Source of the DNA: a virus
Taxonomy: Duplodnaviria > Heunggongvirae > Uroviricota > Caudoviricetes
DNA: 10,423 nt
Strand: one strand, 5' to 3'
IMG/VR virus record: IMGVR_UViG_2534681835_000018
Shown here one piece after another: positions 6,001 to 10,423 of the stretch. The stretch's first letter is position 1. Every line of letters starts with the position of its first letter. The position numbers are program-made.

Positions 6001-9000
6001 TTTTCTTGATCACGCTTTTGCAACCGGCGTGCTCGGGTAAAAGAGGTTACTGATGCGTATAGAGTTTGTTTTGCCTTACCCGCCGACGGTGAACACCTAC
6101 TGGCGACGTCGTGGCAGCACATATTTTGTATCAAAAGCCGGTGAGCGTTATCGCCGGGCTGTGGCGCTTATTGTTCGCCAGCAGCGGCTGAAATTAAGCC
6201 TGTCCGGACGGCTGGCAATAAAAATTATTGCAGAACCACCGGATAAGCGCCGCCGTGACCTGGACAACATTCTGAAAGCACCGCTGGATGCGCTGACGCA
6301 TGCGGAAGTGCTCATTGATGACGAGCAGTTTGATGAAATCAATATTGTGCGCGGTCAGCCTGTGCCAGGTGGACGGCTGGGCGTGAAGATTTACGAAATC
6401 AGAGGTGGTAACGATGGCGCGTGATATCCAGATGGTTCTTGAGCGATGGGGGGCATGGGCAGCAAATAATCATGAAGATGTAACATGGCCCTCGATAGCT
6501 GCTGGTTTTAAAGGATTAATCCCGACTAAAGTGAAATCACGTCCTCAGTGTTCTGATGATGACGCCATGATAATTTGTGGTTGTATGGCACGATTAAACA
6601 AGAATAATCAGTATTTGCACGATTTGTTGGTGGATTATTACGTAGGTGGAATGACATTTATGGCTCTTGCACGTAAGCATAGATGTTCTGATGGGCTTAT
6701 TGGTAAAAGGCTTTATAAAGCGGAAGGTATTATTGAAGGAATGCTTATGGCTCTGAATGTCCGGTTAGATATGGATATGCGGTAGGGATATATAGTGATG
6801 AGGGTTATGTTTTCTGTGTTTATAATTAACATGTTTATTTTTTGATGGTCATGTATTGTGGAAGGTAGATAAAATGTTGCCTGGTGAATTGAAAATATTG
6901 ATAATCAATCTTCATCATTAAATAAAAGGAGTGCTTATGTGGATTGTGTTAGTACTGTCACTGTCAACTCTCAGTTGGCATAAGGTAGTGGCTTTTTCAT
7001 TGTTGACGGTGTCTGTTGTCCTGGCTGTGCTTAATGATATTATTGATTGGTCGGTGTTATTTTTTGTTGCTACAATCGTTTTTTTTATTATTTTGAAGTT
7101 CAACTGGAAATATAACGCCTGGGCTAAATCTATATATGAAGTTGGCATAGTTTTATCAGCCATAGCATTATCTTTCCATCTATGGCCAGGGTTTCACAAT
7201 CCTGTAGTGCTAAATTCTGTTACTGTTGGCCCTCAAAGTACTCCCTATACAATGTATTTTAATTTTGATAAAGCGCTGGTGCCATTTTTGTTAGTCCTGT
7301 GTACATCTTCTTTGTTTAAAAAAGAAGTAAAATCAGAAGTGTCTTTGTGGAAGTGGGGGGCTCTGTCGCTCTCTGTTCCTCTTATCCTGTTTTTGGCTGT
7401 TTTTTTTGGTGGATTAAAGCCAGAGATTCATTTTCCTGAGTGGTTGCCAGAGTTTATATTGGCTAATTTGTTTTTTGTGTCTCTGGCAGAGGAATCATTA
7501 TTTAGAGGGTATATTCAATCACGGCTATCAGAAGTAACGTCTCCATTGGTTGCATTAATTGTGGCGGCTTTGTTGTTTGGTTTTTATCACTATTCAGGTG
7601 GTGCTTTACTTGTATTATTTGCCACGTTATCTGGTGTTGTGTATGGATTGTCATGGATGTGGAGTGGGCGTTTGTGGGTTGCCACCCTTTTCCATTTTGG
7701 TTTGAATCTGTGTCACTTGTTATTCTTTACCTATCCATTTTTAAAACATAATTGATTTTTTCTATGGTTTTAAATTTATAAGACTGAAAAATAGCAGGAC
7801 GTGACATTTGCATGAAAAATATGCACGGCAAAGCATTTACGTACGTAAAAAATCAGGTATGCTGTTAAGAGTGGTTATTTCGCCGCATAGCTTGACCCCG
7901 CCTCTGAGCGGGTTTTTTGTGCCCGCAAAGTAGCGCAGTGCGTTAAATGTGCTGGTAGTTATTAATACAGGTCTTTCAGCTTGCTGGCTTTTTCGGCAAG
8001 AGTTATTGGTGTGTCACGTTAACCGGAAAGGGTAAAAAGACATGCTGAAACAGCAGGATATGACAGAAACCGCCAGAGTTGTGTTTGATGAATTAAGCGT
8101 CACCGAACCGGCGACAGTCGGGGAGATTGCGCAGAATACTTACCTTTCACGCGAACGCTGCCAGTTAATACTGACCCAGCTTGTTATGGCGGGTCTGGCA
8201 GACTATCAGTGCGGTTGTTACAGACGCCTTCAGTCCTGAAGGCTTTTTTATTTGTGGTAAATGGGCGGCTGGTGGGTGTTAGCGGCACCTGTCAGTCCTT
8301 TGCTTATGTGTTGATGATAATTTACCTTTTGGGGCTATAATTGAACTAACCAATTGCTAATGAAAGTAAAATTATAATGGTTGTTGTCTGTTCAGTTATC
8401 ATGGTTTGCTCCCCAATTAATATTTTTCTTGAAAAGGATACGTTGTCACTTAAGCCCGGCTCAGTCGTTCTGGCCACCAAATGCATCAGGGCGCTTTTCC
8501 TTATGCATTATGGCAAAGTTAAAATTTTCGATATAAACCATTCCATAGTAAGTCAATATCTGGAAATTCAGCATAAGCTGACAAGAACTCATCTGACTGA
8601 CGTTCCGCTTTATCTGTCACTGGAACCCAACAACCCTGCGTTGGCTGAGGCTTTAATTACCAGCCAGAGATTTTCCGGAGATACCACGGATATGTTTCTT
8701 ATGATGGCATGCCTGTCGCTGTTTGAATCAGATGAACGGATATTATTATTTTTAAGTGGATGTTTATCCAGTATAAGTGCCAAAGTCAGGGCGATAATTC
8801 AGACAGATATATCAGCAAGCTGGACGCTTGGTGCGATTGCGTTACGCCTGCATATGAGTGAGAGTTTGTTAAAGATAAAACTGAAAAATGAAGGGCACAT
8901 GTTCAGTCGCTTGTTGCTGGAAGAGCGGATGCGTGTTGCTGTGAATATGTTATGTTCCCGGCATGGATATGGACAGGCTGTAGCAGAAAAATGCGGTTAT

Positions 9001-10423
9001 TCAAGCTGGTCCTACTTTATTTCTGTATTTCACCGCTATTATGGCTTCCCGCCAGACAGATATGTATCCAGGCAAGGGCTTGATTATTGATTTTCATCTG
9101 ATTATTATTTTTTGACCCGGCCCTTTAGCTCAGTGGTGAGAGCGAGCGACTCATAATCGCCAGGTCGCTGGTTCAAATCCAGCAAGGGCCACCATCACAT
9201 ACCGCCATTAGCTCATCAGGAAAGAGCGCCAGCTTTCGAAGCTGGTTGCGCGGAGTTCGGGTCCCCGAAGGCGGTCCATTATCTGTATCCTGCGTTGTTA
9301 GCTCAGCCGGACAGAGCAATTGCCTTCTAAGCAATCGGTCACTGGTTCGAATCCAGTACAACGCGCCACACTTATTTTCCCTGGCTCGCTTTTGCGGGCC
9401 TTTTTTTTAAATGTCTCACAATTCAGGCGGTTGACTGTTGTCTGGTTTGCGGGGAGTTTGTTAAAAGAAACTGGCATGGTGAATCCCCCTGTGCGGAGGG
9501 GCAATCAGCGAGTAGGTATATGGGATAATCGCGGATTCAGGTGCTGGTACTGAATTCACCGGGAGGCACCCGGCACCATGCAATGGCACATAGCGCCACT
9601 CTCCAGCCCCTCTCCGGAGGGGCTTTCTTATGGACAAAAAAAGCCCGCGCAGGGAGACGCGGGCGGCAAGGAATAAACAACAAAACGTGAAGTAATATTT
9701 CAGCTGGCGAATAATATCCGACAGTAATCACTCTGCGCAATAGCGCGGCCTTTTTCGTATTGCGGGCTGTTGTCTCTCTTCTGCCATTGTCCTGTAACTT
9801 CCGGACTTCAGCCCGCTCCTCATTTTACTCACAATATTATCCCGGCCGGGAGGATTCATGGCATTTAAACACTATGATGTTGTCAGGGCGGCGTCGCCGT
9901 CAGACCTTGCGGAAAAGCTGACACACAAACTGAAAGAGGGCTGGCAGCCATACGGCGGACCGGTTGCCATTACGCCGTACACACTGATGCAGGCGGTGGC
10001 TATTGAAGGAGATCCACAGGTCGGCCCTTCATCTGAGCCGGACTGGTTCTACGTGGTTGTGCTTGCCGGACAGTCCAACGGCATGGCCTACGGTGAAGGG
10101 CTTCCGTTACCGGATTCTTACGATGCTCCGGATCCGCGCATTAAACAGCTGGCGCGCCGCAGCACGGTAACTCCGGGTGGAGAGAGTTGTACGTATAACG
10201 ACATCATTCCGGCTGACCACTGCCTGCATGATGTGCAGGATATGAGTACGCTGAATCATCCGAAGGCAGACCTGAGCAAAGGGCAGTACGGCTGTGTCGG
10301 CCAGGGCTTACATATTGCCAAAAAACTGCTTCCGTATATCCCGAATAACGCGGGGATCCTGCTGGTACCATGCTGTCGTGGTGGTTCTGCATTCACCCAG
10401 GGCGCTGAGGGGACATTCAGTGC

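Follow-up and report, generated by a model that had tools for sequence, protein, structure and literature searches.

The open reading frame at 8377..9090 of the window (the whole 10,423-nt stretch of viral DNA analyzed here) is very probably an intact psrA gene, encoding a known AraC-type regulator of EHEC prophages that switches on GadE and so lowers type III secretion. PsrA is an established case of a prophage regulator taking over a core host circuit, in which GadE links acid resistance to repression of the LEE in EHEC. In the O111:H8 strain that carries the window prophage, this module encodes a PsrA protein with no difference from that of O157. The window adds little to what is known of the regulator; what it offers in practice is a correct name and start for the gene, along with defined cassette boundaries. 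Public annotation hides the gene behind a generic helix-turn-helix name and a PHROG entry of unknown function, and in Sakai behind a start placed 42 residues too far downstream. The features discussed below are as follows.

8042..8239, + strand: 65-aa winged-helix-like ORF, homologous to ECs_1086 and ECs_2192, a neighbor outside the psr unit
8226-8243: terminator-like hairpin with T-run between the small ORF and psrA (terminator scan)
8312..9115, + strand: psr cassette (moron), without a Stx2a phage counterpart; those phages have a DNA methylase gene there instead
8314..8341, + strand: sigma-70 promoter-like site ATGATA-16-TATAAT, the best of the region in a consensus scan (10/12)
8377..9090, + strand: psrA coding sequence, 237 aa, with ATG start and TGA stop at 9088-9090 (ORF list)
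8377..8691, + strand: N-terminal regulatory or dimerization domain (about residues 1-105) of the GadW/YdeO/AppY/PatE type, starting MVVVCSVI
8776..9075, + strand: C-terminal AraC/XylS DNA-binding domain (residues 134-233) with two helix-turn-helix motifs
9119..9368, + strand: tRNA cluster ileZ (CAT), argN (TCG) and argO (TCT), directly 3' of psrA (ARAGORN, Rfam tRNA)

Identity and extent of psrA

The product of the window ORF is identical to that of O157:H7 ECs_1087 read from the same start, and the accession WP_000261909.1 is common to the window, EDL933 and E2865. At the nucleotide level psrA is 100% identical to E. coli E2865, and it differs from the Sakai ECs_1087 locus by one synonymous base (G567C) over 714 nt. 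The same protein is found intact in O157, O26, O111, O145 and O103 genomes, and about 500 complete genomes carry psrA at a nucleotide identity of at least 99%. In a typical O157 genome, psrA has two matching loci. The initial annotation had described the ORF as a regulator of the GadX/YdeO/AppY class without naming the homologue; the class holds, and the homologue is PsrA (100% identity, against 90.7% for PsrB and 37% for PatE).

The name PsrA rests on a mapping to the literature, since the public annotation stops at "helix-turn-helix domain-containing protein" and the PHROG entry, 1450, has "unknown function". The member names of nine related clusters go no further than "AraC family" or "helix-turn-helix domain-containing". 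The designation "psrA (ecs1087, Sp4)" is that of the Tree laboratory, which describes a PsrA/GadE cascade that represses the LEE (PMC13502914). Reviews equate psrA with z1789 and place it in OI-50/CP-933N (PMC10877973, PMC8565820). The potC prophage of the resequenced EDL933 genome, where CP-933N/OI-50 is expected, has no psr homologue by annotation or tblastn, and the identical gene lies in the yccA prophage, which is equivalent to Sakai Sp4. The locus labelling of psrA is thus discrepant between the reviews and the resequenced genome. An sRNA has been described between the transcriptional-regulator gene z1789 and the esterase gene z1793 (PMC11774850), and the STnc100 sRNA at 9445-9635 of the window occupies the matching position.

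The Sakai annotation of ECs_1087 (195 aa, starting at M43) is too short by 42 residues. The longer start is indicated by the homology of the N-terminus to GadW, YdeO, AppY and PatE. A codon-position comparison of psrA and psrB with the Stx2k-phage homologue gave only two to three differences within codons 1-42, too few to bear on the choice of start. With 237 aa against 242-253 aa in its GadW/YdeO/AppY/PatE-type relatives, and with alignments to these that run end to end, the ORF is not truncated.

Domain architecture and family

PsrA is an AraC/XylS activator that combines a short N-terminal domain of the GadW/YdeO/AppY/PatE type with a GadX-like C-terminal domain. The two helix-turn-helix motifs that define the family are present within some 100 aa at the C-terminus, and both Pfam HTH_18 (residues 155-230, E 5.7e-9) and HTH_AraC (residues 202-224, E 1.2e-8) match this domain above the gathering score. 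This bears out the double helix-turn-helix of the initial annotation. Its assignment of the N-terminus to the acid-resistance subfamily also holds, as GadW, YdeO, AppY and PatE share the motif M-x-x-V-C-S-V-I with PsrA (the start of PatE is given as M-x-x-x-C-S-V-I) and align with it along the entire protein. BLASTP identities to PsrA over the full length are 37% for PatE, 35% for GadW, 31% for YdeO and 29% for AppY, and GadX is 38% identical over the C-terminal 154 aa.

The top NCBIfam model for PsrA is YdeO, with residues 1-229 aligned to model positions 1-230 of 253, followed by GadX and then by HilD and HilC. PsrA is not an orthologue of any of the K-12 regulators GadW, GadX, YdeO and AppY, since its scores fall far under the curated equivalog cut-offs: 104.1 bits over the full length against 348 bits for YdeO (NF007407), and 88.5 bits over the C-terminal part only against 500 bits for GadX (NF007432). 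The NCBIfam models for sugar-catabolism regulators, a group with a cupin-type sugar-binding N-terminal domain, match weakly (E 4e-4 to 9e-4). Those for AraC (E 9e-4) and RhaR (E 4e-4) match in the DNA-binding domain only, and are ruled out as the closest models. Neither closest relatives among such regulators nor a truncated ORF, either of which would have spoken against an acid-resistance type regulator, was found.

By sequence, the DNA-binding domain matches that of GadX in the PDB (3mkl, E 1.5e-18), and the PsrA model superposes on it with a TM score of 0.87-0.89 and an rmsd of 1.6-1.8 A at 40-42% identity. This AlphaFold (AF2) model was built from a 13-sequence alignment and has a mean pLDDT of 72.5. 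The DNA-binding domain is confident, while the N-terminal half (pLDDT 48-76) has a predicted fold of five beta-strands plus helices. Because the N-terminal half is of low confidence, the model speaks neither for nor against an Rns- or ToxT-like fatty-acid pocket in PsrA.

Prophage context and proposed function

psrA is prophage cargo, as the initial annotation had it. In the window it is surrounded by genes for RusA, the antiterminator Q and a CPBP protease and by the ileZ-argN-argO tRNAs, and in matching genomes esterase and lysis genes follow downstream. The order Q, CPBP protease, small winged-helix ORF, psr, ileZ-argN-argO, sRNA, esterase and pchA is the same in Sakai Sp4 and EDL933, and the tRNA cluster is annotated in Sakai as ileZ1/argN1/argO1. 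As expected for the lambdoid prophage of PsrA, a PerC-family or pchA gene is present in the same prophage of matching genomes; effector genes are seen in the psrB prophage Sp11. The HnrS sRNA, a reported up-regulator of psrA, is encoded in the prophages Sp9, Sp10 and Sp12 and is absent from the psrA prophage.

The cassette itself is about 0.8 kb and AT-rich, with a GC content of 0.42, in the range 0.39-0.43, against 0.48 for the whole window. Its boundaries come from blastn, in which homology to Stx2a_1447, the phage whose annotation shows the methylase gene, stops at 8311 and restarts at 9116. The site at 8314-8341, 36 nt upstream of the ATG, is the predicted promoter of psrA itself, and both psrB and the homologue in the Stx2k phage are preceded by a conserved version of it. 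The small ORF upstream has a weak Pfam TrmB match under the cut-off (E 0.003), belongs to PHROG 331 of unknown function, and is part of the backbone common to Stx2a phages without psr.

The published function is taken from two reviews (PMC10877973, PMC8565820), which summarize Tree et al. 2011 and Yang et al. 2015, and from a later paper of the Tree laboratory (PMC13502914). By analogy with the identical O157 protein, PsrA of the O111:H8 strain would raise expression of GadE and YhiF, two host regulators of the acid fitness island. GadE may then repress the LEE operons, as in the O157 experiments, and the expected outcome in O111:H8 would be less type III secretion and more glutamate-dependent acid resistance. 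The phage regulator would thereby tap a circuit that the host already has, in the way that PsrB, PatE and AppY do.

The initial annotation also suggested that the psrA product could act as a pair with the small DNA-binding ORF next to it, the 65-aa one, to regulate host genes or the neighboring CPBP protease. The small ORF, the CPBP protease gene and psrA are indeed adjacent on one strand downstream of Q, and the small ORF is found beside psrA and psrB and also beside the psr homologue of the Stx2k phage. Such a pair is nevertheless extremely improbable, since the hairpin and the separate promoter-like site divide the small ORF from psrA, and Stx2a phages keep the small ORF although a methylase gene replaces psr. 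The small ORF, intact in the window, has a 1-nt frameshift beside psrA in Sakai and EDL933, the O157 strains for which PsrA function is established, though the intact paralogue ECs_2192 could act in trans. Neither the psrB locus nor the Stx2k phage locus has the CPBP protease gene, which also argues against the pair. It is very unlikely, too, that psrA is cargo in decay or silenced by H-NS and plays no role in the window strain. In favor stand the AT-richness of the cassette and the decay of the prophage, seen in an IS629-type insertion in the window and in a Q annotated as frameshifted in strain E2865. Against this, the ORF is intact, its protein is the same across serogroups, hundreds of genomes carry psrA, and psrA is transcriptionally responsive in Sakai (PMC13502914).

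In a rival reading the protein would work like PsrB or PatE: it would mainly activate hdeA and gadE directly and increase acid resistance, and type III secretion in its own host would hardly change. This overlaps with the PsrA reading, as all these proteins work via GadE. PsrB is 90.7% identical to the window protein and occupies the same slot in another prophage, and reviews report direct binding of PsrB and PatE at hdeA (-132 to -45) and at gadE (PMC10877973). Such a function is very unlikely for the window allele, which is 100% PsrA. The 22 amino-acid differences between PsrA and PsrB include several in the DNA-binding domain (R157Q, I167T, H174G, H196Y and W211R), and the deletion phenotypes of psrA and psrB are reported to differ (PMC10877973, PMC8565820). 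In Stx-type lambdoid phages the gap between the small winged-helix ORF and ileZ is filled in some cases by psr and in others by a DNA methylase gene, and in phiSTEC1575-Stx2k the psr homologue sits in this slot directly upstream of ileZ-argN-argO and stx2k. Because of this position, psr may be read from the Q-dependent late promoter besides its own. An exchangeable cargo slot in which Q-late read-through raises Psr dosage upon induction, together with toxin and tRNA expression, is a rather doubtful proposal, and the coupling of lysis-lysogeny to the host GAD and LEE programs is speculation. If true, prophage induction would link Psr dosage, toxin and tRNA expression to these programs.

Comparison with known systems

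The closest known system is PsrA of O157:H7 (ECs_1087/z1789; WP_000261909.1), which has the identical protein, an identical 140 nt upstream and the same gene order. It differs in its host, O157:H7 as against O111:H8 for the window prophage, and in the frameshifted small ORF upstream. The early region of Sakai Sp4 is also different, and only 4190-10423 of the window is colinear with Sp4.

PsrB (ECs_2191/z2104, in Sakai Sp11/OI-57) is a paralogue of 237 aa in its extended ORF. ECs_2191 is taken to be PsrB because its identity to PsrA matches the published 90% between the two (PMC10877973, PMC8565820), and the window allele is of the PsrA type. Like psrA, psrB lies between the small ORF and ileZ in a prophage with a pch gene, and ECs_2191 is found in Sp11 together with nleG2-3, nleG6-2, nleG5-2 and pchB. 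Besides its substitutions, the psrB locus is distinguished by the missing CPBP protease gene and by the absence of argN from the Sp11 tRNA cluster.

PatE (z0321) appears to correspond to ECs_0287 in Sakai Sp1/OI-8. Like PsrA it is a prophage AraC regulator of the same subfamily that aligns over its full length, and its reported targets are gadE and hdeA (PMC10877973). At 37% identity the window ORF is not PatE, whose gene also has another position, within a degraded prophage at thrW that is not the same as this one.

The virulence AraC regulators Rns, CsvR and ToxT are the best full-length PDB matches to PsrA by sequence and fold, but they are only 17-22% identical and superpose poorly as whole proteins (TM about 0.4, rmsd 15-17 A). 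In E. coli K-12, the chromosomal GadW, GadX and YdeO and the DLP12 regulator AppY have the two-domain architecture of PsrA and share its target, gadE of the AR2 system.

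The AraC-like ORF and its prophage setting

The window corresponds to the late-regulatory region of a lambdoid prophage, with the following genes.

4991-6040, DUF968 gene
6053-6424, RusA
6405-6785, antiterminator Q (Pfam E 5e-52)
6931-7755 (+), CPBP/CAAX-type intramembrane protease
8042-8239 (+), 65-aa small ORF
8377-9090 (+), AraC-like ORF (psrA)
9119-9368, tRNAs Met/Ile-CAT, Arg-TCG and Arg-TCT

E. coli O111:H8 strain 8E matches the entire 10.4-kb window in a single piece at 100%, and many STEC genomes of types O26, O111, O145 and O103 share the 1.6 kb surrounding the psrA ORF at 100% identity. 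Of 5426 complete E. coli genomes, about 726 have at least 80% of psrA, and 504 of these reach 99% identity or higher.

An IS3-family element of the IS629/IS1203 type (about 2268-3580, -; 98-100% identity with the Sakai copies) has transposase ORFs at 3199-3525 and 2312-3199 (-) and an ALIL frameshifting pseudoknot at 3128-3244, and interrupts the 3' part of the ORF at 1741-2505. A hok/sok-type type I toxin-antitoxin module lies at 4220-4544 (+), with a match to the Rfam sok antitoxin RNA model at 4220-4394 (+) and a hok/mok-like ORF at 4332-4544 that is labelled hokD in matching genomes. The CPBP protease, immediately 3' of Q, is Rce1-like (formerly 'Abi'), belongs to PHROG 13291, where its function is listed as unknown, and is encoded by strongly AT-rich DNA (GC 0.34-0.40). 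Its role is perhaps in immunity or exclusion.

In the mechanical ORF list, 8377..9090 (+) starts with ATG and encodes 237 aa. The C-terminal AraC double HTH described in the initial annotation is correct and far beyond chance, with HTH_18 (residues 155-230) and HTH_AraC (202-224) each exceeding its Pfam gathering score. The acid-resistance-type N-terminus is borne out as well, since the top NCBI curated model, YdeO, aligns from the first residue (residues 1-229 on model positions 1-230 of 253). GadX ranks next, ahead of the virulence regulators HilD and HilC, whereas AraC, RhaR and further catabolic regulators match at E ~1e-3 only and over the DNA-binding domain alone, so the closest relatives are not sugar-catabolism proteins. 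Nor is the ORF truncated, at 237 aa against 242-253 aa in the family.

Among solved structures, the closest relative by sequence is the GadX DNA-binding domain 3mkl (E 1.5e-18), followed by Rns, CsvR and ToxT. In an AlphaFold model built on a shallow alignment of 13 sequences (mean pLDDT 72.5), the DNA-binding domain (pLDDT 80-93) superposes on 3mkl (TM 0.87-0.89, rmsd 1.6-1.8 A). For the N-terminal half the model predicts five strands with several helices, at pLDDT of only 48-76, and the full-length model gives TM ~0.4 against Rns, CsvR and ToxT.

Identity with psrA and the start codon

The window ORF is psrA. The gene order in Sakai prophage Sp4, ECs_1084 (Q), ECs_1085 (CAAX protease), ECs_1086 (small ORF), ECs_1087, ileZ1-argN1-argO1, ECs_1088 and pchA, is that of the window. 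ECs_1087 is annotated in Sakai as 'AraC-family transcriptional regulator'; the 714 nt at this locus that correspond to the window ORF differ from it by one synonymous base, and the 140 nt upstream are identical. The laboratory behind the Psr discovery gives psrA as ecs1087 of Sp4 and describes LEE repression through a PsrA/GadE cascade (PMC13502914, 2026). O157:H7 genomes carry psrA at 99.9% identity, usually with a second matching place. The protein WP_000261909.1 is encoded in the prophage adjoining yccA in resequenced EDL933. The same accession is annotated in E2865, where the gene matches the window psrA at 100%. In addition, the sRNA EvrS has been described as flanked on one side by z1789, 'a transcriptional regulator', and on the other by the esterase z1793 (PMC11774850), which agrees with the window order of three tRNAs and the STnc100 sRNA (9445-9635, Rfam), followed in matching genomes by a SASA-family esterase.

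A second copy in Sakai, ECs_2191, lies in prophage Sp11, which further carries nleG2-3, nleG6-2, nleG5-2 and pchB. These nleG genes are the OI-57 effectors of the EDL933 effector list. Alignment of the window protein with PatE, PsrB, YdeO, GadX, GadW and AppY, as had been proposed, gives PsrB as the best match; the value of 90.7% for the extended ECs_2191 ORF agrees with the 90% published for PsrA and PsrB (reviews PMC10877973, PMC8565820). The earlier reading as a GadX/YdeO/AppY-like AraC regulator carried as phage cargo thus holds for subfamily and prophage setting, and the homologue it left unnamed is PsrA. PatE was taken to be ECs_0287, the sole AraC-like gene in Sp1/OI-8.

Identity of relatives to the window protein (relative, identity, aligned region)
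PsrB (ECs_2191, extended ORF), 90.7%, full length
PatE (inferred ECs_0287), 37%, full length
GadW, 35%, full length
YdeO, 31%, full length
AppY, 29%, full length
GadX, 38%, C-terminal 154 aa
EnvY, 45%, C-terminal 127 aa

In the Sakai annotation ECs_1087 and ECs_2191 are 195 aa and start at M43, whereas the RefSeq pipeline gives 237 aa. In a multiple alignment, the N-termini of PatE, GadW, YdeO and AppY show homology to residues 1-42, and in the start motif M-x-x-V/T-C-S-V-I both M1 and C5 are invariant (13/13 sequences). This N-terminal homology indicates that the long form, of family length, is the real protein. Over the first 42 codons, a codon-position comparison found too few differences to be informative.

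Reviews assign psrA, as z1789, to OI-50/CP-933N (PMC10877973, PMC8565820). In resequenced EDL933 (NZ_CP008957.1), the potC prophage (stretch L003, 1620001-1670000) encodes Q, TerB, DUF3927 and an esterase and no psr homologue, and the identical psrA gene lies in the yccA prophage (stretch L010, 1240001-1290000). The likeliest explanation is that repeated prophage segments were positioned differently in the first EDL933 assembly.

The psr cassette and its neighbours

The Stx2a-converting phage Stx2a_1447 is homologous to the window at 7840-8311 (small ORF and 3' flank) and 9116-9409 (tRNAs), with no homology at 8312-9115; the corresponding region of the phage (L012, the Stx2a_1447 phage, 4462-5635) carries a 1059-nt DNA methylase gene instead. 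psrA thus forms a discrete cassette of about 0.8 kb, with a GC of 0.42 compared with 0.48 in the whole window. At the start of the cassette is the region's best predicted sigma-70-like site (8314-8341, ATGATA-16-TATAAT), and a predicted terminator-like hairpin with a T-run (8226-8243) lies upstream, overlapping the small-ORF stop codon (8237-8239). Phage phiSTEC1575-Stx2k has an 89%-identical psr homologue in the same slot (L011, 5479-6192), immediately 5' of its tRNAs and stx2k; the remaining sequenced lambdoid phages have only distant relatives (28-40% identity). The slot between the small winged-helix ORF and ileZ looks like an exchangeable cargo position of Stx-type lambdoid phages, holding psrA, a methylase or a psr homologue.

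The small ORF had been proposed to form a regulatory pair with the AraC-like protein. It has a below-threshold Pfam match to the TrmB winged helix (E 0.003) and belongs to PHROG 331, also of unknown function there. It is found beside psrA, psrB and the Stx2k homologue, and equally in Stx2a phages lacking psr. The copy is intact in the O111 window and beside psrB, but beside psrA in Sakai (L002, the stretch with the psrA locus, 18344-18583) and EDL933 (L010 25674-25870) a 1-nt deletion, GTTATGGCGGG to GTTATGCGGG, alters the last 16 residues, and RefSeq calls it a frameshifted pseudogene. PsrA function was established in O157 despite this frameshift. Obligatory pairing is thus unsupported; the small ORF could possibly act in trans via ECs_2192, an intact paralogue elsewhere in Sakai. 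Control of the neighbouring protease, also suggested initially, finds no support either, since both the psrB and the Stx2k locus lack the CPBP gene, their homology beginning only at window 7897-7908.

Regulatory role

The STnc100 sRNA (+), which scores 138 bits where the gathering score is 47, follows the argO tRNA and precedes the esterase gene, with its 3' end at a terminator-like hairpin (9605-9624). The LEE-repressing sRNA EvrS/Esr023 was mapped between z1789 and z1793 (PMC11774850), and since this is the position of STnc100, psrA may adjoin a second virulence regulator. The potC prophage also carries an STnc100-like stretch (L003 22548-22674, 92% identical to window 9456-9581).

The regulator is already known and experimentally studied; the by-products here are the gene name, the start codon correction, the cassette boundaries and the psr/methylase alternation. 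The identical protein raises GadE and YhiF expression, and GadE represses the LEE operons, so that type III secretion falls (PMC10877973, PMC8565820, PMC13502914). In the literature on this protein, secretion also rises on psrA deletion, and PsrA aids persistence in a ruminant model. The O111:H8 host would have the same circuit, from PsrA through GadE and YhiF to LEE repression. The reviews also report binding of PsrB and PatE at the promoter regions of hdeA and gadE, with a gain in acid resistance (PMC10877973, PMC8565820), and AppY of DLP12 acts likewise in K-12.
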